From Desulfobacteraceae bacterium (GTDB lineage: Bacteria > Desulfobacterota > Desulfobacteria > Desulfobacterales > Desulfosarcinaceae): DNA of 42,468 bases. The notes beneath the pieces are model-generated. The model searched no databases and was not told the DNA's origin. It saw nothing but the letters and a program-made list of their open reading frames with translations. The translations under genes were made by a program, and so were the position numbers. The stretch spans positions 7,008 to 49,475 of the forward strand of contig JARRKU010000065.1 in the NCBI GenBank assembly GCA_037387725.1, given 5' to 3'. This document shows, piece after piece, positions 12,018 to 42,468 of this stretch. Positions within the stretch are counted from its first letter, which is position 1; each line of letters opens with the position of its first letter.

Positions 12018-12857
12018 TCATCGACTCAGATCGACTTGCTGCCCTTCGGCTCTCCCCAGTATGGCCAGTACGCTGTCGATGAGTTGCCGGCGGTTGGCCG
12101 TCACCTCTGAAGCGCCCAGCCCAATAAGTTCGCCTTTTCTGCGCACGGCCCACTGGCTGGCATATACGATCACCGGTGGACCGCCGTGAACGATCGACGG
12201 GTGTTTTAGAAATGAGACGCCGGCCGTTTGAGAGCTGTCCGATGAGTGGGCCCTGCCAAGATCGGTAATCACAAGATCGTAGCTCTCATTTGCAAGCTGA
12301 TCGACGGCTTCGGACGTGGACACAACGTTGTCAAAGACAATACCGTGCGGCCTGAGCGTCTTGCGTTCGATCTCGTTGTTGGCGGGCAGATCATCCACCC
12401 ATAACACACGTGCGGCACGCCTGGGGATGGTCGCAAGAACCGGGATCGCATCGACGAGCGCTGAAACATCGTCTGAAAAAGATTCCCGGCGGAGGAAATA
12501 GGCGTCCCGTTTGGTGAACCACCGCAGCTCGGCCGGCAGGTCTGCATCGGACGGTATCCGGCCCCCGTCCACAAGAACAGGGACCACCGCCACACCATGA
12601 AAGCGGGCACGCCGCCATTCGTATGCCACGACGCAGGTTGCTTCCTTCAGCCGGGCGACGTCAAATGATGGACCGATCATGGACAACATAACGTTGGCCC
12701 TTGAAACCGCATTGCGGATCTCCTGGGGATAAAGGTCGCCGCCGCTTATGCTGCCGGTGTCGACAAATGCATTGTGGCCCGCACCGCTCAGCGCGAATCC
12801 AACGGCATGGGCGGCAAAGAGCGTGTCCGCCCGTTGGTAGGACACAAAAACCTCCAT
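12018..12857 (-). CDS. TIR-domain protein fused to a CheY-like receiver (REC) domain
   Basis: ATG 12857 with RBS AAGGAG 7 nt upstream. N-terminus MEVFVSYQRAD...GDLYPQEIRNAVSRANVML...AYEWRRA is a bacterial TIR_2-like start. C-terminal half (VLWVDDLP...YDLVITDL...VIVYAS...K) has the acidic pocket, phospho-Asp, Ser/Thr and Lys of a receiver. Confidence 0.7.
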   Translation of the reverse strand: MEVFVSYQRADTLFAAHAVGFALSGAGHNAFVDTGSISGGDLYPQEIRNAVSRANVMLSMIGPSFDVARLKEATCVVAYEWRRARFHGVAVVPVLVDGGRIPSDADLPAELRWFTKRDAYFLRRESFSDDVSALVDAIPVLATIPRRAARVLWVDDLPANNEIERKTLRPHGIVFDNVVSTSEAVDQLANESYDLVITDLGRAHSSDSSQTAGVSFLKHPSIVHGGPPVIVYASQWAVRRKGELIGLGASEVTANRRQLIDSVLAILGRAEGQQVDLSR

Positions 12858-13145
12858 GGTGTCACTCCTTCGCATAACTTGGTCCTTTTTCGCCAATCCG
12901 TTACCATCCTTTATAGGAAGCTGACGCGTCTACCCACACCCCATGTCTGCCCAATCGTTGCATGATAAAGTGGTAAATGGCTTGCAAAGCCACATGGCCG
13001 ACCCAACAATTTTGGCCGACACCACAACTTCGAACCGATGTTTTTGTAGGGCGGGGCTCCGTACCCAGCACAACTGTCTGCGATGGCGTACCCTTGCCGC
13101 CGTATTCTGGCGTCCTCCATCGGCAGCGCAGCATCGAACGATGTC

Positions 13146-13541
13146 TTATTCCAAACTAAAGCCAACCACCTTTCCGTGCGAAAGACTCAAGCTCCCCAAT
13201 AATTGATATTTATCCCCTGAGATATGCACCTTCCATAAATGTCTTCGCATGCCGATACTTTTTATATCCCCGAGATATTCGAGTTGATACCCTTTTTCTA
13301 TTTTCGCACTTCGCTGCAGGATCAGAGAATCAAACGTATATTCATCCATAAAGGACTTAAATGCTTCATTTCCATGCTTGATGAACGCTTGGTGATTTTT
13401 GATTCTCAGTGCCTCCATTTGGAAGATCATCAGCTTTTCAACAGTCTCCGCTGATTCATCCTGTGCTGAAACTGTGTTTAGGGACAAGAGCAGGGACAAA
13501 AGAACCAAAATTGATGGCAAAAAGATCTTATCGAACCGCAA
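13146..13541 (-). CDS. Secreted hypothetical protein (signal peptide), AT-rich
   Basis: MRFDKIFLPSILVLLSLLLSLNTVSAQ signal peptide. Composition differs from neighbouring genes. Confidence 0.5.
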   Translation of the reverse strand: MRFDKIFLPSILVLLSLLLSLNTVSAQDESAETVEKLMIFQMEALRIKNHQAFIKHGNEAFKSFMDEYTFDSLILQRSAKIEKGYQLEYLGDIKSIGMRRHLWKVHISGDKYQLLGSLSLSHGKVVGFSLE

Positions 13542-13585
13542 TGCATCACCTCATCAATAAATTGTTATCGTCGATGCAGGCGCTA

Positions 13586-14120
13586 TCACAGGGCAAGGAT
13601 CATGACATTCCTGCGTGTGCCTGCCGTCTTTACAAATTGAAACCCCGCCTTCTCAAATGTTGAGACAAAACCCATAAACGTGTAACTCGGCGAGTCATGT
13701 GCAACAGGATAGGCTTCGATGTATCGGGCGCCGTTGTCCCTGGCATATTGAACGGCCGCATCTATCAGCCGCGATGTAATGCCCCTGTTTCTGAAGGGAC
13801 GTTTGATAAAAAAGCAGACCAAAGACCATACGCGATCTTTAGCTTCGTCTCCACCCAACGATCTGTAAGTATCGCGCGGAGCGATCGAACACCAGCCAAT
13901 CGGTTCATCTTCGAAGTAGGCAAGCAGCCCGATGGGCACACCGCGATGGACAAGGTCGCAAATCGAAGCCTTCCTGCCCGCTTTTCCGGATATCGTTGTT
14001 TTTGTAGGTATTGATCCGCCAAGCCATGCACCAGCAATAATGGGGGCCGCCCCTGCTTTCAAATAGCTGCTCGAAATCACTCCAGCGATCGGGTGTAACG
14101 GGATGGAAGTCGGGGTTCAT
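13586..14120 (-). pseudogene. GNAT-family N-acetyltransferase split by a frameshift
   Basis: N-terminal part (MNPDFHPVTPDRWSDFEQLFESRGGPHYCWCMAWR) is in the frame of ORF 13905-14120. The GNAT core (RNRGITSRLIDAAVQYARDNGARYIEAYP) is in the frame of ORF 13586-14080. The overlap contains a T5 run at about 13993-13997. Confidence 0.55.
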
Positions 14121-14184
14121 TTGAGAAAACGCATTTTGCGCCCTTTAATCTGGATTTGCCAAATTGCAGCGCAACGCAGCGGCA

Positions 14185-14607
14185 TCATTTAATGTAGTAA
14201 CCGGATACCCGCCATTTTCCATCTGCGTCTAACATGGGGGTTACGGTTTCGATGGCTGATTGTTTATTTTCAAAAGCAGTGCTGAACTGAATCACCACAT
14301 ATTGTCCGTCCGGCGCCCCCGGCAAGGATGTTCTGTAGGCGATGCGCTTAGGCACTCTGGACAGGAGCCTGCCAAGGGGCGTTCGCACAGTGCGGAGCAT
14401 CTGCACCCACTGCTCCTTGTTTACGGCATTCTTGAAGTAATCTGCTGCACTGTCCCAACTGTCGGCATAGGCTTCCTCGTCAACCCGCTGCAACCATTCC
14501 AGCGCGCTCGCCTTTGCAGCCTCCTTCTTTCCGGTATCGGCCATCGCGCATGACCACGCAACAAGCAGCATCCCAAGTGAAAGGATATACACGCGCCTAT
14601 TTATCAT
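14185..14607 (-). CDS. DUF4019-like secreted protein
   Basis: ATG 14607 with RBS GGGAGGTG. Signal peptide MINRRVYILSLGMLLVAWSCAMA. Body matches the DUF4019 pattern as recalled (ending ...DGKWRVSGYYIK). Confidence 0.6.
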   Translation of the reverse strand: MINRRVYILSLGMLLVAWSCAMADTGKKEAAKASALEWLQRVDEEAYADSWDSAADYFKNAVNKEQWVQMLRTVRTPLGRLLSRVPKRIAYRTSLPGAPDGQYVVIQFSTAFENKQSAIETVTPMLDADGKWRVSGYYIK

Positions 14608-14650
14608 TGTCACACCTCCCTTTTTGATAGGTCCAGCCGATCCGATCATT

Positions 14651-15466
14651 TCACCCCAAAGCCACGTCAAGGAGCATCATTACGGAAAAACCCGCCATGG
14701 TCATCATGGTAACCGTATCGATGTTTTCCATTTTTCTCTGGGATTCGGGTATGAGTTCCTCAACCACCACAAAAATCATGGCACCCGCCGCAAAGCATAA
14801 CGCATATGGCAGAACACTTTGCATTTTTAACACGAACAAGGCGCCGAAGACACCTGCGATGGGCTCCACGACGCCCGACGCCTGCCCCATGAAAAAGCTC
14901 TTGCCCTTTGACAATCCTTCTCTTCTCAGGGGCATGGAAACGGCTGTGCCTTCAGGAAAGTTTTGTAGACCGATGCCAATGGCCAGCGCTATAGCGCCGC
15001 CAAGCGTTGCAGAGGGAAGGTTGGCGCCAACCGCACCGAAAGCAACGCCGACCGCCAGGCCTTCGGGAATATTATGCATTGTAATGGCAAGCACCAGCAG
15101 CGTGCTCCGCTGCCACGAGGTTTTGATGCCTTCGCTTTTATCGATACTCAGGTTCGGGTGAAGATGGGGAAGAAATTTATCCGTCAGCCGCATGAACAAC
15201 CCGCCGGCCATAAACCCGATAACCGCTGTCAACCATGGTATTTGTCCCAAATTTTCAGCCATCTCGATACCCGGAGCGAGCAGAGACCAGAAACTCGCCG
15301 CAACCATAACGCCCGCTGCAAATCCGAGCATTGAGTCCAAAAGTTTCTGGTTAACGCCGCTGGTCACATAAACGAGCGCAGCGCCGGCCGCCGTTACCGC
15401 CCAAGTGAATAGAGTGGCAACAAACGCCTGACCAACCGGGTTGAATTGTTGGATAAATTCGATCAT
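14651..15466 (-). CDS. zupT: ZIP-family metal transporter
   Basis: 271 aa, 8 TM, with the conserved [10 protein letters not shown] and HxxPEG motifs. Confidence 0.9.
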
Positions 15467-15700
15467 ACGGCTATTTCCTTACGCTAAAGTTCACACGGCC
15501 GCCAGCCAATCCAAACGGCTGAACATCACAAATCCCGCTTCAACGATTGGCGGACACCAGTGGCCCAAAATGCCATCATAAGCCTGTTTGCGACTGCTCC
15601 CGCACCTATGGCATCGGCTTCTTTCCGGTTAAACAAATTTAATGGCAACGAAACTAATATGCTATCATTTGAACGGATTTCAAGTATTTTAAAATGCCTA

Positions 15701-16087
15701 TCATCTGATCAAATTAAGACAGTTAAGGCATTTGTATCGCTTTCTAAAAATAAAGATCGGCAATCCCGATAAAAGCGTCAGGGCCGCCGCTTTTCTTGTC
15801 CAATTGATCAAAACCAAATTCAGGGATCCGCATTTATTGCAACGCTCATCATCTGAAATCTCCGGAAATGGAATCCTCTCTAAAGCACTTGAACAATCCG
15901 TATTAAGAACTTTTTGCGCATCCTCGAAGTCGGATTCCAAGATTCGAAGTTTAACGCCACCTATTGCAAGAGAGATGGTCCATTGCATATTGATATGATG
16001 ATCACCAACGACCCATGAAGGTATGCCCTCATATTCCAACCGTGACTTGGCCAGATAAGCCAATGGCGGGTCGATAAATGACCTCAA
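15701..16087 (-). CDS. DUF2007-like putative signal-transducing protein with C-terminal CxxC...CxxC zinc ribbon
   Basis: LAYLAKSRLEYEGIPSWVV...GGVKLRILESDFEDAQKVL matches DUF2007. The C-terminus has CNKCG...CLNC. Confidence 0.55.
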   Translation of the reverse strand: MRSFIDPPLAYLAKSRLEYEGIPSWVVGDHHINMQWTISLAIGGVKLRILESDFEDAQKVLNTDCSSALERIPFPEISDDERCNKCGSLNLVLINWTRKAAALTLLSGLPIFIFRKRYKCLNCLNLIR

Positions 16088-16227
16088 TGTGATAAGCCGA
16101 TAATGCTTTCTATCGATAGCGCTTTTTCCTTACAAGTTCACTTAATGATTTCAGCAATTGTTTTTTAGGCCGAAATCAATTGAAAACAACAGCATCATTG
16201 CCATTGCACTACTTCGAACCATACAAC

Positions 16228-16731
16228 TTACCGCCCCAGCTTTTCTGCGTCCGTTGACGTTTCTTGTCTGACATTGATTTTCTCCTGGATAGCTTCAACG
16301 AATTTCTTATCCAACCCATTCTCACTGGAAACCGGAAAGCTAATTTCCATTTCTGATGATGTGGTTACCATGACATAGGAATCATCCCAAAACGAATCGT
16401 CATACTGCACGACTAGAGATACGATTTGATCAAAGGGAATGATCGTCTCGGGTTCTTCCCAGCTGCTTGAATATGCGATCAGATTTCTGTCCGTTACGAA
16501 ATAGAGGCCTGTCTTGATATCAAACAAGGCATCAGAATAGAAGTATCTGATTTGCTCATCTTCCTGGAGCAGGTTGAGCGACCTTATCGTCTTCATATAT
16601 TTCTTGGGAATTTGACGGCCCGGATACACCGCCGTATCAGGCCCACTAAATAGAATTGTGACAAATGCAATGAATATCAGCCCGATAATGGAGACACAGC
16701 CTAACCCTGTGTACTTCAGAGTCTTATTCAT
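16228..16731 (-). CDS. Membrane-anchored hypothetical protein
   Basis: N-terminal TM anchor (GLGCVSIIGLIFIAFVTILF). AT-rich. No known family recognised. Confidence 0.5.
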   Translation of the reverse strand: MNKTLKYTGLGCVSIIGLIFIAFVTILFSGPDTAVYPGRQIPKKYMKTIRSLNLLQEDEQIRYFYSDALFDIKTGLYFVTDRNLIAYSSSWEEPETIIPFDQIVSLVVQYDDSFWDDSYVMVTTSSEMEISFPVSSENGLDKKFVEAIQEKINVRQETSTDAEKLGR

Positions 16732-16921
16732 TTATTCCTTTCTTCCTGCCCCCGAAAGCGGACTGTTCACAGAACCATAATTAATAGCGCACAAGGATGC
16801 AAAAGCCCCTCATCCGAGAATTGTAACAAGTTGATCATCTGCATTGATCGATCACCTATTTTTCGAAATATTTTTGAACAGTGTCGATTAGTGGTCCTCG
16901 CTGTCCTTCACCATCGGGTTG

Positions 16922-17320
16922 TTACGCGTCGTTTTTTCCATACACCACAAGGGATCCGACAGCAAAATCGTGAATTGCTCTTTTATTTCTCGAGAATGGA
17001 ATTGTAAAAAATGAAAGCAACCCCAGGACAATTTTTACGATTATTCGCAAATAAGCCTGAACGATGGATATTTTCTCTCCTGTTGAAAATTTCCGGATTC
17101 GGATACCCGTAACTTTTTGACCGAGCGTGCAATAAAAGGCCGTAAAGATCGGTTCGTAAACAAAAAACATAAAGAGTATGATAATGATTCTTACGTTTAT
17201 TGCAGTGGCGTTTTCGCTATCCAAAATATAAGAAGATAGAAAAAGCATACCGATTATGAACAAACCATCAATGAATGTAGATAAATATCTCCTGAGAATA
17301 CCAGGATGTACGATCTCCAT
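16922..17320 (-). CDS. RDD-family membrane protein
   Basis: RRYLSTFIDGLFI... with 3 TM and a C-terminal RAIHDFAVGSLV motif typical of RDD. Confidence 0.6.
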   Translation of the reverse strand: MEIVHPGILRRYLSTFIDGLFIIGMLFLSSYILDSENATAINVRIIIILFMFFVYEPIFTAFYCTLGQKVTGIRIRKFSTGEKISIVQAYLRIIVKIVLGLLSFFTIPFSRNKRAIHDFAVGSLVVYGKNDA

Positions 17321-17419
17321 ATTTGAAAATTCCTTTATTTACGATTAAAAATATAAGGCGAACGAAAGGCGGAGACGCGCGTCTTCTTTGCGTGCTGTGT
17401 CTCAAGCGACATGTGCCAT

Positions 17420-17995
17420 TCATTCATTATTAATTAATTTCAGCTGTTTATAGACATCATCCAAGGTAATAACCTCGTTTTCCCGAGGAGGATCGATTTT
17501 AATTGAATCGCCAGTTGTGAAGACCGTTGTTACATATCCTTCAATTATCTCAATCTGTGATGATAACTTTCTAACTGAAGGATCTAACGAAGACTCCTCC
17601 TTAACAAGTTCAACATCACACCCCATATAATAAACCTGCAATGAAAAAACACCTATGGGTGCCGGAAACCTGAATCCTGTTTCTACAATATACGGAGGAG
17701 AATCACCGTAAGGAAAAATGTCCTCGGATAAAAACTTCTCGCTATTTAAATACACGACCAAATGGCATGATGACGGTGGGGAAGGTTTCCACTTATCTGC
17801 TTCCTCCGGGGGTAAGTCTTTTGGTTTTTCTATTGAGGGTATCTGATCATCGAACAGTTCAACTTCGACCCAACCATGCGGTTGTGAGGTAATATATGCT
17901 TTCCGGCTTTCGCTGATATTGGCAACAACTTTTTTTGCACAGCCCAGCACCGTCAGCATGATGCAGAAAATAATTACGATATGCTCAATCTTCAT
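17420..17995 (-). CDS. Hypothetical lipoprotein
   Basis: Signal peptide with lipobox VLGCAK. No known domain. Confidence 0.55.
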   Translation of the reverse strand: MKIEHIVIIFCIMLTVLGCAKKVVANISESRKAYITSQPHGWVEVELFDDQIPSIEKPKDLPPEEADKWKPSPPSSCHLVVYLNSEKFLSEDIFPYGDSPPYIVETGFRFPAPIGVFSLQVYYMGCDVELVKEESSLDPSVRKLSSQIEIIEGYVTTVFTTGDSIKIDPPRENEVITLDDVYKQLKLINNE

Positions 17996-18049
17996 GCTAT
18001 CTCCATTGTGATTAAAAGGACCTAATAACCGGCGAGTATGCGAATCCGA

Positions 18050-18853
18050 TTAATTTTCTTGTTGGACGGCAACGGATCGACATCTTAGTTTAAACCCATT
18101 TGCTTTTGCGTCTGCAGTTATTGCAGTTGCCACTCTAGTGGCCTTCTCATATGTTGGAGTGGAAATTAGTATGCCACCATTCGTATGAATATCAAGCATC
18201 ATTGAGATTGCATCTTCTTGGGTCATGTTCAGGTGGGTCGTTAAGCTGGATACCACAAATTCCATTGTCGTGTTATTGTCATTTAGAATCTCTATACCTG
18301 TTGTAAAATCTGGCGGCATGAAACCCTGAAGCTGCGTCAGCCGAGTTTTTGAGGAAAACGTAGCTGATGTGTCAGGATAAGAGTAATGCCGTCCACGCAC
18401 TCGGTTAGCCAGTAGCTTCCACAGCAAATAGCCATCTGTCCCGAAATCATCGCCATGGCGTTTATGGGGAATGAGATTCAATACAAGAACTATACCATTC
18501 GCAATAGTGAAAGTTATGACTAAGCATGTACCGAAAATCGAAGTTGGATTTCCAAAGATAATTAGATAGGAAGCGGTACCGAGAAGCAGTAGCGCCTGCG
18601 CCAATATACCTGCAGAAGAAAATGCTATTGCTGTAATGAAATTAGGTGGAGGCTCTGTTATACATAAACCACCTGCACCTGAAATCTCTAAGCTAAAAAC
18701 CTTTAGCCCCAAAATACGAGCTGCAGATGCATGTCCTAGTTCATGAAGAATAATGAGCAGGGTGTACGCGATACAGAAATAGATCGTTTCAGGAATTGCA
18801 AACTTTATAATAATATAGATCAGCAATCCTGCTGCTGGGACCGACCAGAGCAC
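18050..18853 (-). CDS. M50-like (site-2-protease type) membrane metalloprotease fused to a C-terminal ClpS-like domain. Start uncertain.
   Basis: HELGHA in a TM helix plus NLIPHKRHGDDFGTDG (the NxxPxxxxDG motif). The C-terminal ~80 aa (ILNDNNTTMEFVVSSLTTHLNMTQEDAISMMLDIHTNGG...) follows the ClpS adaptor pattern. The long ORF (to 19111) overlaps the upstream SLT gene, so the start is probably the internal GTG at about 18853. Confidence 0.6.
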   Translation of the reverse strand: MLWSVPAAGLLIYIIIKFAIPETIYFCIAYTLLIILHELGHASAARILGLKVFSLEISGAGGLCITEPPPNFITAIAFSSAGILAQALLLLGTASYLIIFGNPTSIFGTCLVITFTIANGIVLVLNLIPHKRHGDDFGTDGYLLWKLLANRVRGRHYSYPDTSATFSSKTRLTQLQGFMPPDFTTGIEILNDNNTTMEFVVSSLTTHLNMTQEDAISMMLDIHTNGGILISTPTYEKATRVATAITADAKANGFKLRCRSVAVQQEN

Positions 18854-18912
18854 ATAAACTGGTATATCTTTTAGAAATGTAATTTTTACCGCAGAATTTG
18901 CAAATCGCCGCG

Positions 18913-19512
18913 TCAGCTTTTGCGGTAGATGCGAAAGGCCCGCATTACTTTTCGGACGTAGCGTTGGGTTTCCGGGTAGGGGGGAATATCGTTGTACTTT
19001 TCCACGGCCGTGGGGCCGGCATTGTAAGCGGCCAGTGCCAGGTCGACCTGCCCGCTGAAGCGTTCCAACATGGTCTTGAAATAGAAGGCGCCGCCCATGA
19101 TGTTCTCCCACGGGTCGAAAGGATCGTTGATATTAAGCTTATCCAGATTCTCCGGCATGATCTGCATCAGGCCCAGGGCCCCTTTTTTGGAGACGGCTCT
19201 GGGATTGAAGTAGGATTCCACATGGATGACGGCTTTAAGCAGGGAGGAGGAGAGGCCGTTGCGCGCGGCCGCCTCTGATATGACGTCGTCGTAGTTTTTG
19301 ATGTTGTAAAGGGCGCTGCGGTATTTGGAAGGTTCCGGCATATACACTTTGTACTTGCTGGAGGTGGGTGTGTTGGTGAAATGCAGCACTCCCTGGCTGT
19401 CCACGTATAGATAGATATCCGCTTGTGCGGCGGAAGTGACAAAAAGCGTCACCCCGATGACAATAAGCTTAAGCGTCCATTTGATCCGTTTGTTTGCAGA
19501 ATGCTTTTCCAT
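18913..19512 (-). CDS. Lytic transglycosylase (SLT domain), secreted
   Basis: Signal peptide. SLT motifs ES...GLMQIMP and AAYNAGP. Confidence 0.85.
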   Translation of the reverse strand: MEKHSANKRIKWTLKLIVIGVTLFVTSAAQADIYLYVDSQGVLHFTNTPTSSKYKVYMPEPSKYRSALYNIKNYDDVISEAAARNGLSSSLLKAVIHVESYFNPRAVSKKGALGLMQIMPENLDKLNINDPFDPWENIMGGAFYFKTMLERFSGQVDLALAAYNAGPTAVEKYNDIPPYPETQRYVRKVMRAFRIYRKS

Positions 19513-19671
19513 TTGAACTTATTGTTTTTAAATTGTATGAAATTTCAGCTTTTTAAGTTACAGCGTCCTCATGTGCCGGCGCTATGCGATTCAATATGAT
19601 AATCGGACGATTGCGCCAAACCTTAAGTTAATGTTTTCTATATATAATCGATAGCAAGAAGCGTACCTGTT

Positions 19672-20091
19672 TCACTGCTCTTCATCGGATGCTGTGATTT
19701 CAAACTCGGTGGTGATATCCGCCACACCGCGCACCGTGGCGGCCACCGAACAATATTTTTCCTGGGACAATTCTATGGCCTGGGCTAAAGCCTTTTCCGT
19801 CAAATTCCTGCCGCTGACCACAAATTTCAAGTGGATATGGTGATAGGCCCACGGCGGATCTTCGTTTCGTTCTCCGGTGGCGATCACTTCCAGAGACGTC
19901 AGGGGTTTTCGCTTTTTTTCCATGATGGAGAGGACATCGTAAGCCGTGCAGGCCGAAAGACCGATGAGCAGCACCTGCGATGGGCTCACCCCTTTGCCCG
20001 GGTCGCCTGCGGAGAGCACGATGGAGTGGTCTCTCGCGTCTGTTCCAACAAATTCTTTGTCGCTCACCCAATGTACGGTGGTGACAGGCAT
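19672..20091 (-). CDS. OsmC/Ohr-family peroxiredoxin-like protein
   Basis: ATG 20091 with RBS AGGAG. Two conserved Cys (LSACTAYD, KYCSVA) of the OsmC fold. Confidence 0.8.
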   Translation of the reverse strand: MPVTTVHWVSDKEFVGTDARDHSIVLSAGDPGKGVSPSQVLLIGLSACTAYDVLSIMEKKRKPLTSLEVIATGERNEDPPWAYHHIHLKFVVSGRNLTEKALAQAIELSQEKYCSVAATVRGVADITTEFEITASDEEQ

Positions 20092-20301
20092 GCGCCGGCT
20101 CCTATTTTTATCGGTATCATATAAGAAAGGTTTGGGCAACCATATAGAATTATTTCATAATCTGCAAGGTTTTCCTTTAGCGGAAGCGCTTGCTTCAGGA
20201 TTCTGCCTGAACCCCCAACCTTGACAGCCGCATCAAATTGGCGCATATGCATGCCAGATCAGGCGCAAGAACCCTATGTTTAGGAGAGGTCGCTGGCGGC
20301 C

Positions 20302-21027
20302 ATGACCAGAGACAAGATATACCAGGCCCCGCAGGATCCGGTTGCCCCCTTTGAGTTTAACGACCAGGTGGCGCGGGTATTCGACGACATGCTCAACCGC
20401 TCCATTCCCTTTTACCGGGAGATCATCCGCAGACAGGCCCAATTGATCCAACGCCACTACCAGCCCGATACGGTTATCTTCGACCTGGGGTGCTCCAACG
20501 GCAACCTCAGCCTGGAGATCTGCCGCCTAATGGGGGACGCGCCTTTCCGGATCAGGGCGGTGGACAACTCCGCTCACATGCTGAAGGTGTTTGCGGAAAG
20601 GTTGGAGGCAACGCCTTGTGCCGACCGGGTCTCCCTCCGATGTGAGGACATCGGCCGGACCAGGATCGACAACGCCTCGGTGGTGGTGTTGAATTTTACC
20701 CTGCAGTTCCTGGTCCCTGAACAGCGATCCGGCCTGATCTCCAGGATCTACAAAGGAATGACCGACGGCGGCGTCTTGCTCTTCAGCGAAAAGGTCACCC
20801 ATGACCATCCAGCCATGGCCGGACTTCAGCAGGAACTTTATCATTCTTTCAAGCGCGAAAACGGGTATTCTGACCTTGAAATCAGCCAGAAACGCGAGGC
20901 CCTTGAAAAGGTGCTGATCCCCGAAACCATGGAGCGCCACCTGGAGCGGCTGCGGCAGGCGGGCTTCGGCGCCATCGATCTGTGGCAGAAGTGGTTCAAT
21001 TTTGCAGCCTGGGTCGCAATCAAATGA
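20302..21027 (+). CDS. cmoA: Carboxy-S-adenosyl-L-methionine synthase
   Basis: 241 aa with SAM-MTase-like fold motifs (DLGCSNG). Its stop overlaps the cmoB start (ATGA at 21024-21027). Confidence 0.9.
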   Translation: MTRDKIYQAPQDPVAPFEFNDQVARVFDDMLNRSIPFYREIIRRQAQLIQRHYQPDTVIFDLGCSNGNLSLEICRLMGDAPFRIRAVDNSAHMLKVFAERLEATPCADRVSLRCEDIGRTRIDNASVVVLNFTLQFLVPEQRSGLISRIYKGMTDGGVLLFSEKVTHDHPAMAGLQQELYHSFKRENGYSDLEISQKREALEKVLIPETMERHLERLRQAGFGAIDLWQKWFNFAAWVAIK

Positions 21028-37711: not shown

Positions 37712-38289
37712 CCGCAACAGAGAGGTGGCAGCGGCGGTTCGGACAAAATCAAGTCGGCCGCAGCAGCGAGATCGTCCACCACCAGGGTGGGCGATACCTG
37801 CTTGGCGGCCAGCTCCTTCTCAGCCTGGCGCCCGCAACCGGTGCGCACCAGCATGGTGGCCCCGCAACCGGCATTCTGGCCGCAAAGCACATCCTTGATA
37901 TTGTCGCCGATCATCACCGTACATGGCAGATCAATGGCGTGGGCGGTCTTGGCCTGAAAGATCATGCCGGGCTCCGGCTTGCGGCAGTCGCACTGCTCAT
38001 CGGGGTGGTGGGGGCAGTAGTAAATATCGAAGATCTTCCCCCCGGCCGCTTCAACCGCCCGGCGCATGCGGTGAAACATATCTTCCAGCACCGACAGCGG
38101 CACCATGCCCCGCCCGATAATGGACTGATTGGTAATAACGATCAAATGATATCCGGCCCTGGTCAGGGCCGCCAAAGCCTCCAGGCTGCCGGGAAGAAAT
38201 TCAAATTCCTCCCAGCTCTTGATATAATCGGGTGAGTCCCGGTTGATCACCCCGTCCCGATCCAGAAAGATTACATTTTGCAGTATCAT
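37708..38289 (-). CDS. gmhB: D-glycero-beta-D-manno-heptose-1,7-bisphosphate 7-phosphatase (HAD-IIIA)
   Basis: FLDRDGVIN HAD motif I, CxC zinc site (CDCRKPEPGM), and the GDxxxD motif. RBS GGGAG. Confidence 0.85.
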   Translation of the reverse strand: MILQNVIFLDRDGVINRDSPDYIKSWEEFEFLPGSLEALAALTRAGYHLIVITNQSIIGRGMVPLSVLEDMFHRMRRAVEAAGGKIFDIYYCPHHPDEQCDCRKPEPGMIFQAKTAHAIDLPCTVMIGDNIKDVLCGQNAGCGATMLVRTGCGRQAEKELAAKQVSPTLVVDDLAAAADLILSEPPLPPLCCG

Positions 38290-38549
38290 GGCTCCCGCAT
38301 TTCCGATTACAGCTTAAACCGTCCGGCAAAAGGCAACAGCGGCAATGATCAAGATCAGCCCATACCGCATGAAGCCTAAATCATTAACCCATCGAATGCA
38401 ATTATTCATCACCGTGATGGGGACACGCATAAAATCAAATAAATCGCCACCCGACCCATATGACCATCCTGTTGTGGCCCAACACCATAACCGTTAGATA
38501 ACAAATAGTTACAAATTTAACAAGATTCATGGCATAATTCTCCAACATA

Positions 38550-38570
38550 CTTATGTGTCAGACACATAAG
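38550..38570. promoter_or_regulatory. Perfect 10-1-10 palindrome (candidate operator)
   Basis: CTTATGTGTC-A-GACACATAAG in the AT-rich region between gmhB and the first cassette ORF. Confidence 0.4.
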
Positions 38571-38797
38571 TGCGTAATTTAAACATATTGTTGCACTCAA
38601 ACGGATTATCAAAAGGCATAGCAGGGCTATGGAGTGGGACTTTAGATCGATTGAACCACTCGATTATTCAGAGAATATATGATGTAGGCGTGAATCAACC
38701 TTACCGATCTTGGCCTTATAGCGATAAAAAGCAAAATTTTTCCATAATATTGTTGTATATTCCGCAAGAATATCACACAATCATAACAAATACAGAC

Positions 38798-38876
38798 AAT
38801 TAACAAAAAATTGCACTCAATTGCGATTCAGCCGTCTTATCAAAAAGCAGCTGCGGCAGAATCTATAATGTTAAGT
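38798..38876 (+). repeat. attC/attI-like recombination site preceding the first cassette ORF
   Basis: Inverse-core-like AATTAAC (38798-38804), then 65 bp, then core GTTAAGT (38870-38876) 8 nt before ATG 38885. The reverse complement of the core (ACTTAAC) equals the inverse core of the next site. Confidence 0.4.
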
Positions 38877-38884
38877 TTCAAAGT

Positions 38885-39565
38885 ATGAATATACCTTTGA
38901 CATATTATTTTGAATACTGGTTTAAGAATTCTTTGCTGGCTTTGTTAACCGGCTTTTTAATTACTTTTCTAATTCCGCCTTTGTTAGCGGCATTGCCATT
39001 GTTTGGCCTAATTCTGTTTTTAATGTATCAGATGATTATATATCGACATTTTTGGGGAAAAAGGAGAGGAGATTTTGAGTTCTCTTCTAAGGAAAATCTT
39101 ATAAAGAGGAAGATTAATTCCTTTATAAAACAGCAGCTTGGAATAGGGGAATTGATACGTTATAAATTAGACCACCTAAACAGCATTATTACCTATGGAT
39201 GGGATATGTATCATAAGCTTGCGCGACGGTCAGAAAATCAAGATGAAATTTTTCATTATTTCTTAAATTTAATTGGAGCTGATCTTTCTCGAAAGGAAGG
39301 TGACTTTAAAAAGGAACGGGAATATCTAATAAACGCAGTATTAGCGTCCCCAGATGATACAGTATCTAATTTTCGACTTGCAGTTACATTTGAGCAAGAG
39401 GGACGATCTGACGAGTCAGTAAATTATTATAGAAAGGCTTTAGAGGCTTCCTCAATTGATACGCCTGAGCTCAAAGAGTTTATAATGGGTCAAATTACCC
39501 GTGTAATTGAAAAAGGCCCAGCCAAAAGCCCGCCAGTCCCGGGGTTGAGGTTTATGTCATGGTAA
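38885..39565 (+). CDS. Cassette ORF 1: 2-TM protein with TPR-like C-terminal region
   Basis: 226 aa, AT-rich. A hydrophobic hairpin (LLALLTGFLITFLIPPLLAALPLFGLILFLM) followed by a soluble helical domain. Confidence 0.5.
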   Translation: MNIPLTYYFEYWFKNSLLALLTGFLITFLIPPLLAALPLFGLILFLMYQMIIYRHFWGKRRGDFEFSSKENLIKRKINSFIKQQLGIGELIRYKLDHLNSIITYGWDMYHKLARRSENQDEIFHYFLNLIGADLSRKEGDFKKEREYLINAVLASPDDTVSNFRLAVTFEQEGRSDESVNYYRKALEASSIDTPELKEFIMGQITRVIEKGPAKSPPVPGLRFMSW

Positions 39566-39578
39566 TGGGAAAAAGGAA

Positions 39579-39650
39579 ACTTAACCATGCCTTTCACTCG
39601 GATGGCAATTCCGCTGCGCTACATTGCCACCGGTGAAGGCGGCGTTATCT
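39579..39650 (+). repeat. attC-like site 1
   Basis: ACTTAAC...imperfect palindrome with bulges (GCCTTTCACTCGGATGGCAAT / ATTGCCACCGGTGAAGGCGG)...GTTATCT. Starts 14 nt after the ORF1 stop. Next ORF starts at 39669. Confidence 0.5.
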
Positions 39651-39668
39651 TCGTAAGGTGGAGGAACT

Positions 39669-39977
39669 TTGGGAAAGATTCTATTTAAAGTATCTGGAGC
39701 ATATGATCTATCCGAGTATCGATGGTGGCACGATTCTGAAGATGGGAAAAGTTATCTTTACCTCGAATTTAAAGGTGGAGATGGCGAATGCGCTATCAAA
39801 TTTACAAATCCTTATTCAATTGATTCAACTTTTGAGCTTTTCGAGGATTTTCATGAACTCGTTGTGTATGATTCGAAGGAAGATCAGTGGGAAAAACATA
39901 CGGTTAAGGCTGAATATTTCGTTGAATCATTTCATGAGTTTTGGGCAGAGGCATTTGATATAATATCGGGCAGATAA
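39669..39977 (+). CDS. Cassette ORF 2: small acidic cytosolic protein (102 aa)
   Basis: TTG start with strong SD AGGTGGAGGA 5 nt upstream. No family recognised. Confidence 0.45.
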   Translation: MGKILFKVSGAYDLSEYRWWHDSEDGKSYLYLEFKGGDGECAIKFTNPYSIDSTFELFEDFHELVVYDSKEDQWEKHTVKAEYFVESFHEFWAEAFDIISGR

Positions 39978-40097
39978 CCTTGCTGTCCAGAGGGACAGCA
40001 AAGGCCGGGCCACTATGAAAGATATTGCTTTATCAAATTTAAAACCGTTTACAAAGGTCAGTGGAAGCCCTTGCTGCCCCTGACCGCAGCGTTAGGG
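39972..40097 (+). repeat. attC-like site 2
   Basis: AGATAAC (contains the ORF2 TAA), CTTGCTGTCC-AGAG-GGACAGCAAG hairpin ... CTTGCTGCCCCTGACCGCAGC GTTAGGG (40091-40097). Next ATG at 40105. Confidence 0.5.
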
Positions 40098-40104
40098 GGG
40101 GCTC

Positions 40105-40554
40105 ATGGCAGATGATTTGTTTGATAAGCAACACGATGAACCACTTGTAATAGCGCTAAAAAAGGATGATCCTGAGTTGTTAAAGTGTACGAAGAAGGCT
40201 CAAGAGACACTTCAGGTTTTTCTTGATCTTTATGAACAGTATCATAAGGATATTTCGATATACTTCGCCATTAAGGTACCAATAGAGACCGATGATGATC
40301 CAGTTCATCTTTGGTATTCATTTAATGGTATAGAAAAAGGTTTGCTGGTAGGAGAGCATTTTCAAATTCCACAGGGGTTTGAACACTTAAAGAATATTAA
40401 GGTTAAGCCTGAAATCATCGAAGACTGGATGATAAATGACCATGAGATATTGTATGGCGGTTTTTCATTAAGGTATCAACGATCATTGCTCCCTGAGGGA
40501 CGAAGACCAAAATATGATGAGTATATGGGGGTTAGGGAATATAAAGATATTTAG
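40105..40554 (+). CDS. Cassette ORF 3: hypothetical protein (149 aa)
   Basis: RBS AGGGGGGG. Hydrophilic protein, no confident family assignment. Confidence 0.5.
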   Translation: MADDLFDKQHDEPLVIALKKDDPELLKCTKKAQETLQVFLDLYEQYHKDISIYFAIKVPIETDDDPVHLWYSFNGIEKGLLVGEHFQIPQGFEHLKNIKVKPEIIEDWMINDHEILYGGFSLRYQRSLLPEGRRPKYDEYMGVREYKDI

Positions 40555-40555
40555 C

Positions 40556-40613
40556 CCCTAACAATCGGCTGTTGGCGAACTCGCTTTGCTCGCCGCAAAG
40601 CCGCACGTTCGGC
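40556..40613 (+). repeat. attC-like site 3
   Basis: CCCTAAC 2 nt after the TAG, AATCGGCTG ... GCTTTGC-TCGCC-GCAAAGC hairpin ... CCGCAC GTTCGGC. Next ATG at 40631. Confidence 0.5.
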
Positions 40614-40630
40614 GTCTAAAGGGACAACAT

Positions 40631-41281
40631 ATGGCTATGCAACTCTCTCATGCTTTACTGGAAATGCATGACATTCGGATTTTTCGAGTCGAAGATTCAG
40701 AGGAATTTGATTCTGACAACTTCATAAAATGGGACGTGACTCCCATTGAAACAGATGTCCTTTTGGAACAGGATGGTTTATTTATTTTACGCGCATTTCA
40801 GATTAAGGGACCCAACGAAAAAATTGACTGCTTCATTGATCTGACAATGCCCGAAAGAATAGCTGATTATGCTTATTTCATAGGTTCTGGCAATGTGGAA
40901 CGTAAGTATCTTCACGAATGTGATGGTAATGTTATCTGTGCTATACCGATTGATGGTCACGGCGTATATGATCTATTTTATTCAAAAATTAATCCTGACC
41001 TCGGGCTGTCAGTCCTCCGACGAGGGCTTGAGCTTGCTACTCGGAAAGTTTTCATAGCAGAGGATCTTGGATATATTTTACGCGATGAAGGCCGTATTGA
41101 AGAGGCGATAGAAGCGTTTAGTATATCAGCCTCTGAAGAACCATCGTCATACTTCATATATCACGAACTTGCAGAACTTTACGATCAGCTGGGTCAGACC
41201 GAGCTTTCAAAACAGTACCGCGACAAGTGCCCAAAACAGGATACTCAAATGAAAAGAAAACCGTGGTGGAAGCTATGGTAA
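40631..41281 (+). CDS. Cassette ORF 4: hypothetical protein with TPR-like C-terminus (216 aa)
   Basis: ATG 40631 preceded by AAAGGGA. No known family. Confidence 0.5.
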   Translation: MAMQLSHALLEMHDIRIFRVEDSEEFDSDNFIKWDVTPIETDVLLEQDGLFILRAFQIKGPNEKIDCFIDLTMPERIADYAYFIGSGNVERKYLHECDGNVICAIPIDGHGVYDLFYSKINPDLGLSVLRRGLELATRKVFIAEDLGYILRDEGRIEEAIEAFSISASEEPSSYFIYHELAELYDQLGQTELSKQYRDKCPKQDTQMKRKPWWKLW

Positions 41282-41283
41282 AT

Positions 41284-41344
41284 GCCGAACCTCTCGCTGG
41301 TGAGGACGGCGAGGACCATGCCGCCTCACAGCTTGGCGTTGTGC
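41284..41344 (+). repeat. attC-like site 4
   Basis: GCCGAAC 3 nt after the TAA (the exact reverse complement of site 3's GTTCGGC core). GCTGGTGAGG ... CCTCACAGC with one bulged base. Ends GTTGTGC. Next ATG at 41361. Confidence 0.5.
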
Positions 41345-41360
41345 GCCTCGATATTGAGCT

Positions 41361-41747
41361 ATGAACGAGAATAATCTAAAATACAGCCCCCTCCCGCATT
41401 ACACGTCAAAAGAGCAAATTGAACGTGTTCTTGAAGGAGATGATGTTGAGGAATTGATTAGGTTGCCGCTGGCGATAGGCTCCTCATATCATGATTGGAA
41501 ATATGCGCAAGACACTTGCATAAAGCTATCAGAGTATGAGGATGCTAGAATAAGCTCTAATGCGTGCTTGGGATTAGCATATGTCGCAAGAAATCATTTG
41601 AAGCTTGAAAAGCATTTGATAAAGCCAGTCCTGATTAAAGAATTAAGAAAAAATCACAAATATAATTGGCGTGTAATTGATTCAATTGAGGATATAAATA
41701 GGTTCATGAAATGGAATATTGCTATTAAACACTTTCAAAATAAATGA
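41361..41747 (+). CDS. Cassette ORF 5: hypothetical protein (128 aa)
   Basis: AT-rich ORF, no known family. Confidence 0.5.
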   Translation: MNENNLKYSPLPHYTSKEQIERVLEGDDVEELIRLPLAIGSSYHDWKYAQDTCIKLSEYEDARISSNACLGLAYVARNHLKLEKHLIKPVLIKELRKNHKYNWRVIDSIEDINRFMKWNIAIKHFQNK

Positions 41748-41754
41748 GAAGATC

Positions 41755-41824
41755 GCACAACATTTGTGTTCAGCGGATCGCGAGGACCATGCGCCCGCTG
41801 AAAAAACGGTATTGTGGGTTTGAT
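41755..41824 (+). repeat. attC-like site 5
   Basis: GCACAAC (the reverse complement of site 4's GTTGTGC core). TTCAGCGG ... CCGCTGAA 8-bp arms. Ends ATTGTGG/GTTTGAT. Shares the 13-mer GCGAGGACCATGC with site 4. Confidence 0.5.
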
Positions 41825-41834
41825 CGAAATTGGT

Positions 41835-42275
41835 ATGAGTCTATCTGAATTACAAAAGAAGGGACTCGACATAAAAAAATCGAAAAATGTAGCGAATCTT
41901 CCTAATCCGGAGCATTATCAAATCGACTCTTTAGGAATCGATTTTGAAATATACGATAGTAAAATAATTCGTATTTGGTTTTTTACCGAAAAAAATAAAT
42001 CATTTCAGCTTTGGCTACCAAATGAGTCCTCAGAAAGGCTGCTATATAAAATTTCGGCTTCTGACATTATTCGAAACTTTGGGGTAGTAAGAAAATATGT
42101 TGATGAGAATCCTCCAAAAGATAAAGATGAAGCGCAGTGGGCAAAATACAAACCATTTGGAATAAAGATAAACACGATTTATTATCCGAAATTGCCCTTT
42201 CATTTTGGATTAAATGATGAGGATAATGTTTCTTATCTAACCGTATCTAAATGTAAAACAGAAACTGCGCAATAG
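41835..42275 (+). CDS. Cassette ORF 6: hypothetical protein (about 147 aa; alternative GTG start at 41814)
   Basis: AT-rich ORF, no known family. Confidence 0.45.
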   Translation: MSLSELQKKGLDIKKSKNVANLPNPEHYQIDSLGIDFEIYDSKIIRIWFFTEKNKSFQLWLPNESSERLLYKISASDIIRNFGVVRKYVDENPPKDKDEAQWAKYKPFGIKINTIYYPKLPFHFGLNDEDNVSYLTVSKCKTETAQ

Positions 42276-42281
42276 GGTTTC

Positions 42282-42384
42282 ACATAACATCTATATGGCC
42301 TTCCGTTGTCAAGGAATAAACCACCCCACGGGATCGGAAGAAGTGAAAAGTCCAAAATCCGGTAAAACTCTGAAGAGTTGACAA
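42282..42384 (+). repeat. attC-like site 6
   Basis: ACATAAC 7 nt after the TAG. Inverted repeats CTTCCG/CGGAAG and GTTGTCAA/TTGACAAC. GTTGACA core at 42378-42384. Confidence 0.4.
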
Positions 42385-42468
42385 CGCGTTTGGTAACTCC
42401 GACTTTGGCTTTCAACAGCAGGCATCAGACAGCTTTCCAGCGTCTGCACCAAACATCTATCGAAATTT

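Follow-up and report, generated by a model that had tools for sequence, protein, structure and literature searches.

Canonical ClpS, as known from E. coli and Caulobacter (PF02617), is a free protein of ~100 aa that serves ClpAP or ClpCP as an N-degron adaptor. To our knowledge, bacterial ClpS is otherwise known only in this small, free form. An ORF on the minus strand of the window (the whole 42,468-nt stretch of Desulfobacteraceae DNA analysed here) appears to depart from this pattern. A first-pass annotation described it as an M50 membrane metalloprotease with a ClpS-like adaptor domain fused to its C-terminus. This raises the question of whether such a fusion is real and, if so, what an N-degron adaptor might be doing on an intramembrane protease. 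The best explanation is that the gene is a member of a rare, uncharacterised family in which a minimal four-helix site-2 protease (S2P) core is followed by a cytoplasmic, C-terminal ClpS-type domain. A full-text literature search found no description of a ClpS-M50 fusion.

A site-2-protease core and a ClpS-type domain

The ORF listing and direct translation agree on a minus-strand frame that ends with a stop codon at 18050-18052, contains an in-frame GTG at 18853 and, in its longest form, reaches 19111, inside the upstream SLT gene (18913-19512, minus). The NCBI product for this gene is shorter, at 258 aa (P0001). The main parts of the 267-aa product that starts at the GTG are:

18050..18853, minus strand: remaining M50-ClpS fusion ORF (267 codons and stop; GTG 18853 is the first canonical in-frame start left after a deletion described below)
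18398..18853, minus strand: S2P (M50) core with four TM helices (AF2 helices 4-16, 20-47, 72-100 and 106-127)
18731..18745, minus strand: HELGH zinc-binding/catalytic motif at the cytoplasmic end of TM2 (H, E and H in 88-90/90 homologues)
18656..18700, minus strand: predicted β-hairpin between TM2 and TM3 (strands 52-57 and 62-66), containing a conserved GGLC
18431..18499, minus strand: second S2P motif in TM4, N119...N126-L-I-P129-x10-D140-G141 (direct translation gives NGIVLVLNLIPHKRHGDDFGTDG)
18302..18397, minus strand: conserved interdomain linker (..PDTSATFSSKTRL..GFMPPDF..), modelled with high pLDDT (~90 in AF2)
18068..18301, minus strand: ClpS-like domain, from profile match and fold

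The HExxH motif that had been reported in a TM helix is indeed found, as HELGH, inside AF2 helix 20-47, and its residues are close to invariant in the 90 near-full-length fusions (H37 in 89/90, E38 in 88/90, H41 in 90/90). The second motif had been given as NxxPxxxxDG. Both NxxP and DG are present, but the spacer between them is 10 residues long (NLIPHKRHGDDFGTDG). In 90 homologues, the conserved positions of this motif are N119, P129, D140 and G141, the last three of which occur in 88/90, 89/90 and 90/90 of the fusions. D140 is presumed to be the third zinc ligand.

The match to known M50 profiles is borderline. The N-terminal half of the window protein scores 25.5 bits with Peptidase_M50B and 18.7 bits with Peptidase_M50, at or just below the respective Pfam gathering thresholds of 26 and 27.2. 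Several homologues carry precomputed PF13398 or PF02163 matches. The S2P core fold, with its TM helices and re-entrant β-hairpin, is present in the predicted structure; S2Ps have a membrane-reentrant hairpin, to which the β-hairpin between TM2 and TM3 corresponds (PMC11486902). AlphaFold2 models were made with the family alignment both for the window product (pLDDT 91.4, pTM 0.79) and for the intact homologue P0184 (pLDDT 92.1, pTM 0.82).

In P0184, Lys and Arg are absent from the predicted periplasmic loops (residues 41-43 and 120-125) and abundant in the N-terminus, in the segment between TM2 and TM3 and in the segment following TM4, a pattern that by the positive-inside rule places both of the predicted termini in the cytoplasm. 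HExxH and Asp-Gly are placed at the C-terminal ends of TM2 and TM4. Water enters the active site of S2Ps from the cytoplasmic side (PMC11486902). The charge pattern and the position of the motifs in TM2 and TM4 therefore point to a cytoplasmic ClpS domain, on the same side as the entrance to the active site.

S2Ps have been divided into groups whose accessory domain is a PDZ domain, a CBS domain or none (PMC10202637, a 2023 review). The fusion shares with the group III enzymes, SpoIVFB and the M. jannaschii S2P, an HExxH at the cytoplasmic end of a TM helix, a re-entrant β-hairpin and an Asp-Gly in a later TM helix (PMC11486902), as well as an N-terminal 'G-I-P-V-x-V-H-W-S' strand and an accessory domain that is C-terminal, cytoplasmic and attached via a conserved linker. 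It differs from them in having four TM helices rather than six, a longer spacer between NxxP and DG, Pfam M50 similarity at or just below threshold, and a ClpS-type accessory domain where they have CBS.

The ClpS-like character of the C-terminal region had been proposed from the strings ILNDNNTTMEFVVSSL...MMLDIHTNGG, which direct translation locates within 18068-18301, and is borne out by both profile and model. The C-terminal ~70 residues match PF02617 in Pfam with 60.5 bits against a gathering threshold of 23 (E=1.4e-16; profile positions 10-79 of 80), and the predicted structure has the ClpS core fold. With the NCBIfam ClpS equivalogs, the protein reaches at most 39.8 bits, far short of the cut-off of 149 (NF000669). 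Mapping of individual residues by HMMER alignment to E. coli and Caulobacter ClpS gives the following correspondences:

18263..18283, minus strand: NDNNTTM, equivalent to E. coli ClpS N34-D35-D36-Y37-T38-P39-M40 (N, D, T and M conserved; D36 and Y37 positions not)
18185..18199, minus strand: M219...H223, equivalent to the E. coli ClpS pocket residues M62 and H66 (81/90 and 89/90 homologues)
18131..18148, minus strand: helix α-3, with the equivalents of E. coli ClpS E79, E82 and K84 (here E, T and V)

All of the pocket residues are present in the window protein (N191, D192, T195, M197, M219 and H223), and they are retained across the 90 fusions, with the equivalent of N34 in 89/90, D35 in 90/90, T38 in 89/90, M40 in 84/90, M62 in 81/90 and H66 in 89/90. 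Met40 is the gatekeeper against β-branched residues, and the other pocket positions contact the N-degron, including its α-amino group (10.1101/2024.06.12.598358). Since the pocket is conserved along with HExxH and Asp-Gly, metalloprotease catalysis and binding of N-terminal residues are probably both under selection.

The face that docks on the unfoldase tells a different story. The ClpA N-domain is contacted in E. coli ClpS by E82 and K84 through salt bridges and by E79 through hydrogen bonds (PMC12493166). The canonical comparison set consisted of the 78 ClpS among the matches listed from a genome-contig scan with the family alignment; the matches listed were canonical ClpS genes only, aligned to residues ~180-258, and the peptide patterns chosen for the scan also fit ordinary ClpS. 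At the E79 position, 53% of the fusion clade is acidic, compared to 99% of the 78 canonical ClpS listed; Glu at the E82 position drops from 82% in the latter to 32%; and K84, which is K or R in 78/78 of the canonical ClpS listed, is never basic in the fusions (0%; V, I, A or L instead). D36 and Y37, with 96% Asp and 99% aromatic residues in the same 78 proteins, are variable in the fusion clade. The docking residues are also lost in the ClpS modules of other architectures, including P0154, which lacks E79, E82 and K84.

A second feature of the adaptor is missing as well. For substrate delivery, the ClpA pore must take in the free N-terminal extension of ClpS (PMC9663308). The ClpS core of the fusion has no free N-terminal extension, its N-terminal side being covalently joined to TM4 via the conserved, confidently modelled linker. 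Unlike canonical ClpS, then, the domain is not free but sits with its N-terminal side on a membrane protease, and has kept neither E79/E82/K84 nor D36/Y37. Source databases label the fusion proteins 'ATP-dependent Clp protease adaptor ClpS'. This is an over-annotation because the equivalog cut-offs are missed and both the docking residues and the free N-terminal extension of an adaptor are wanting, and it exposes a systematic mis-annotation in which fusion proteins pass as plain 'ClpS'.

The family and its architectures

A search of 5.8 billion proteins returned 34 clusters at 90% identity, nearly all of them spanning the whole query and all from metagenomes or MAGs. An exhaustive profile search of 1.84 billion representatives returned 164 at 50% identity with E<=1e-30. 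When the 183 collected proteins were rescanned with the profile split into an M50 part and a ClpS part, the M50-ClpS order was found in 118/183, 89 of which are near full length. Stand-alone M50 cores of ~175-185 aa made up 29/183, and the same ClpS module followed something else in 34/183. A single protein, P0154, has the reverse order, ClpS-M50, and represents an independent fusion.

The same ClpS clade has other fusion partners as well: a large canonical M50 in P0146, an alpha/beta hydrolase in P0178 and, on its N-terminal side, non-protease membrane anchors in P0155, P0158, P0174 and others. The linker motif that precedes the core in the M50-ClpS proteins also precedes this ClpS module in other domain architectures. 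The M50 core, for its part, occurs with a different C-terminal domain, DUF3859, in P0119.

The fusion is real, rare and conserved, and recurs in many lineages and in both domain orders; homologues carry it as one protein. This and the clear ClpS profile match of the C-terminal region answer both of the objections that the first-pass annotation had named as refuting. The probability that two adjacent genes were joined here by a sequencing or assembly error is close to nil. Nothing was found in favour of it, and the sole assembly anomaly is at the 5' end of the gene, not at the domain junction. Against it stand more than 100 independent metagenomic or MAG proteins with a continuous architecture and a conserved linker, and the pLDDT of ~90 that AF2 assigns to this linker. 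In addition, P0112 is a complete stand-alone M50 core gene followed by a gene for an unrelated membrane protein, with no split-off ClpS gene. The same continuous architecture in so many homologues, together with the context of P0112, excludes a sequencing error as the source of the fusion. The family is rare and has been seen in metagenomes only.

A possible role for the ClpS-type domain

The reading favoured here is that the ClpS domain would be a built-in cytoplasmic N-terminus reader and substrate selector for the protease to which it is fused, and not a ClpAP adaptor; its probability is put at about 0.5. In this scheme, the domain would act without ClpA or ClpC. Its ligand would be a hydrophobic N-terminus (Leu, Phe, Tyr or Trp), free and unblocked, at the cytoplasmic side of the membrane, for example that of a membrane-anchored stub left after a first cytoplasmic cut in a membrane protein. 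Once bound, the chain would be held beside the opening that leads from the cytoplasm to the intramembrane active site, and would be cleaved there. Its role might thus be the counterpart of that of the PDZ domains of RseP, or of the CBS domain and linker of SpoIVFB. The idea of N-degron-type recognition feeding a membrane protease rather than ClpAP, already put forward in the first pass, is favoured by the conservation of the pocket, the degeneration of the docking residues and the tethering of the ClpS core.

An unfoldase may nevertheless be involved. The ClpS domain could be a membrane-tethered Clp adaptor, which catches the new hydrophobic N-terminus produced when the M50 core cuts and hands the fragment over to ClpAP or ClpCP. 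In favour of this, the domain is truly homologous to ClpS, its N-degron pocket is intact, and cuts within TM helices would often expose Leu or Phe. There is also a precedent for S2Ps feeding a Clp protease, in which cleavage of RseA by RseP is followed by SspB and ClpXP (PMC10202637), and canonical ClpS genes are present in the related Desulfobacterales MAGs L022 and L064, so the Clp machinery is probably available in such hosts. A poor docking surface does not prevent some ClpS from using an unfoldase: Leptospira ClpS1 acts on ClpA through its N-domain even though its residue at the K84 position is Val (PMC12493166), and actinobacterial ClpS, in which the docking surface is poorly conserved, still works with ClpC1 (10.1101/2024.06.12.598358). 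Because of these two examples, independence from an unfoldase is favoured but not proven. However, the K84 equivalent is never basic in the fusions and those of E79 and E82 are degenerate relative to canonical ClpS, the N-terminal extension needed by ClpA is not a free end, and neither the window ORFs scanned, which also contain no canonical clpS, nor the genes next to homologues include clpA, clpC or clpP. A hand-off to ClpAP or ClpCP is thus considered unlikely.

Nor does the domain have to select substrates at all. It could be regulatory, with small peptides, amino acids or the N-terminus of another protein (a partner or an inhibitor) as the ligand that works the switch, or it could be structural and stabilise the four-TM core. 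In group III S2Ps, the cytoplasmic CBS domains serve mostly for regulation or positioning and are not the main contact with the substrate (PMC11486902), ClpS cores are known to bind dipeptides (PDB 9ayo, 9b1p), and the M50 core also exists alone (P0112) or with DUF3859 (P0119). A purely structural role, on the other hand, would not call for 90-100% conservation of the residues that contact the α-amino group and the side chain, and the neighbourhoods of the carriers revealed no conserved partner gene. This explanation is rated as improbable.

RseP, a group I S2P, likewise combines an S2P core with a domain whose family either recognises the ends of polypeptides or controls the access of pre-cut substrates. 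The RseP/RseA-SspB-ClpXP pathway shows that regulated intramembrane proteolysis can be functionally tied to Clp proteolysis (PMC10202637). The PDZ domains of RseP, however, are periplasmic and lie between TM helices, whereas the predicted reader of the fusion is cytoplasmic, C-terminal and of the N-terminus type, and the Clp link of RseP is made by separate proteins. If N-terminus-gated S2P cleavage is true, it would be the N-terminal, cytoplasmic counterpart of the PDZ-based gating seen in RseP and DegS.

A ClpS fold at work outside the Clp system would have a eukaryotic parallel. UBR-type N-recognins are reported to have a built-in ClpS-like domain that reads type-2 (bulky hydrophobic) N-termini without ClpA (PMC4447728). 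There, the host enzyme is a ubiquitin ligase, eukaryotic and soluble, in contrast to the protease here. The fusions suggest that bacteria, too, may use recognition of N-terminal residues outside the Clp system, which, if true, would parallel the reuse of the ClpS fold in UBR ligases. Selection by N-terminus would also provide the poorly understood 'minimal' S2Ps with a testable rule for substrate choice.

The repeated fusion of this ClpS clade to hydrolases, namely the minimal M50 in both orders, the large M50 of P0146 and the alpha/beta hydrolase of P0178, fits a portable N-terminus reader. Feeding a fused protease cannot be the function in P0155, P0158, P0174 and others, since these proteins carry only an anchor. 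The more general theme may therefore be the attachment of an N-terminus reader to the membrane. More tentatively, and with rather less confidence than is given to the reader function itself, the clade could constitute a ClpA/ClpC-independent branch of N-degron recognition, in which a ClpS-type domain senses a prior cut and licenses cleavage by an S2P, its members serving as portable readers for anchors and hydrolases.

The window copy and its neighbourhood

A look-up of clusters identified P0184, an intact relative of 287 aa encoded on a contig (L087) that is 99.9% identical to window positions 12050-20489 and has the same gene order: OsmC, SLT, the fusion, lipoprotein, RDD and on. Relative to this contig, the window is without 181 nt (L087 1602-1782). 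The lost stretch comprises the whole intergenic region between SLT and the fusion, including the promoter and RBS region, and extends over the ATG and the first nine codons. The traces left in the window are:

18885..18888, minus strand: deletion junction with a 3-nt AAA microhomology, from alignment to L087
18854..18888, minus strand: in-frame N-terminal remnant ..KITFLKDIPVY, identical to codons 10-20 of the intact L087 gene
18841..18849, minus strand: two non-synonymous differences from L087 (18849 CAC->CTC, His->Leu; 18841 TTC->GTC, Phe->Val)

The start of the gene had been called ambiguous on account of the overlap with SLT. It is because of the 181-nt deletion, which took the true start, that none is found upstream of ..KITFLKDIPVY and that the ORF runs into SLT. 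The window copy is damaged, to judge from this alignment, with its start lost by a deletion of either biological or assembly origin.

There is a chance, put at slightly under even, that the locus is a decaying pseudogene, or that the deletion is an assembly artefact, and that the assembled sequence 18050-18853 yields no functional product. Compared to a contig that is 99.9% identical, the gene has lost its upstream region, its start codon and 9 codons; the stretch from the SLT stop to GTG 18853 contains no canonical start (ATG, GTG or TTG), and this GTG has no clear Shine-Dalgarno sequence in front of it. A product started there would miss a confidently predicted N-terminal β-hairpin (P0184 strands 8-14 and 17-22). 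The His->Leu change at 18849, beside the junction, hits the nearly invariant HWS motif, and both non-synonymous changes are within 47 nt of the junction, although only 5 substitutions are found in 8.4 kb. On the other side, the rest of the gene is identical to the intact copy at the protein level, and its frame is open, with no frameshift or stop. Read-through from SLT with a start at GTG 18853 or at a non-canonical codon is also possible (CTG 18916, which forms CTGA with the SLT stop). This account is limited to the window copy and is silent on the identity of the family. As the window copy is damaged and truncated, the intact P0184 is the better object of study. Scans for promoters and terminators, covering the window and the stretch of L087 that was deleted, gave matches at chance level.

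The neighbouring genes had been taken to be envelope-related. An 'envelope operon' as a feature of the family was rejected: no gene neighbours are shared among the five fusion carriers examined, tblastn of the window neighbours likewise gave no match there, and the same neighbours are found only in the near-identical contig L087. The envelope context is therefore local and not a property of the family. No candidate substrate emerges from the gene neighbourhoods of the carriers.

Two other functional candidates were set aside. Defence was rejected for the fusion protein after the PADLOC defence models gave no match to intact P0184, their only matches being weak ones to the RDD and TIR neighbours. 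A leader protease of the RiPP/daptide type was rejected because its match to NF041824 is poor (E=0.022; 13.9 bits against 300) and there are no biosynthetic neighbours.

The neighbours had also been described as AT-rich throughout. This holds for the fusion gene and the four genes downstream of it, which encode a 191-aa lipoprotein with no Pfam match, an RDD protein, a bPH_3-like protein and a DUF2007-like protein and together form a block of 37-43% GC between flanks of 53-59% GC. The SLT gene, at 53% GC, lies outside this block.

A possible linked change at the fusion gene

Compared with L087, an otherwise 99.9% identical contig on which the M50-ClpS fusion gene is intact, the window has five substitutions over 8.4 kb. 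Two of the five, at 18841 and 18849, lie no more than 47 nt from the junction of the deletion that takes the start codon (window 18885-18888; L087 1602-1782), and this clustering suggests that the deletion and the two nearby substitutions are one linked event, be it repair, recombination or mis-assembly, rather than independent mutations.

The fusion gene resides in a low-GC block (15700-18916; GC 37-43%, flanks 53-59%) that looks horizontally acquired and is made up of five small genes. The upstream SLT gene is not part of it.

Genes of the low-GC block
Minus strand, M50-ClpS fusion gene
Minus strand, lipoprotein of 191 aa without a family match
Minus strand, RDD protein, weak PADLOC match to the PD-T4-6 C-terminus
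Minus strand, bPH_3-like membrane protein
Minus strand, DUF2007-like protein

On two other carrier contigs, L001 (6655-7626 and 15285-16882) and L002 (10800-11381), the fusion gene is found amid small ORFs without family matches. In L001 these ORFs lie beside an integrase of phage type and a GmrSD-like gene; in L002 they are close to SUKH_6 and ankyrin proteins. These surroundings hint that the fusion gene is often located in variable or mobile regions.

Domain partners of the ClpS module

The ClpS clade of the fusion is also found in further architectures, represented by the homologous proteins P0155, P0158, P0165, P0174, P0183, P0137, P0145, P0178, P0146 and P0166.

Further architectures of the ClpS clade
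Uncharacterised multi-TM domain, then ClpS
TM and TPR, then ClpS
Large canonical M50, then ClpS
ClpS, then a C-terminal TM region
ClpS, then an alpha/beta hydrolase (S33-like)

These architectures retain the marks of the clade: an intact N-degron pocket, a hydrophobic residue at the K84 equivalent and the conserved pre-core motif ..FPPETsLL..GF.P.GF..GIEILND.

About one-fifth of the M50-ClpS fusion proteins (P0021, P0023, P0028, P0035 and similar) have an additional N-terminal multi-TM domain of ~130-180 aa with the motif GYRL..NRPNRY.S.LPP.GW. This domain, which matches no Pfam family, is also joined directly to the ClpS module, with the protease absent.

Other features of the window

12018-12896, minus strand, TIR_2-domain protein of 292 aa
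35534-37957 (within), minus strand, RecD2-type helicase of 727 aa
35534-37957 (within), plus strand, ORF of 751 aa without a family match
38885-39565 and 40586-41281, TPR-repeat proteins
41814-42275, ORF without a family match

The 292-aa protein carries its TIR_2 domain at the N-terminus and, after it, part of a response-regulator receiver domain; PADLOC gives a weak ThsB-like match. The helicase gene and the 751-aa ORF overlap on opposite strands, the latter probably being a shadow ORF in high-GC DNA. The TPR-repeat proteins and the last ORF belong to another low-GC stretch (38000-42468; 39-43% GC, positive GC skew), which is preceded by a region of 61-65% GC.
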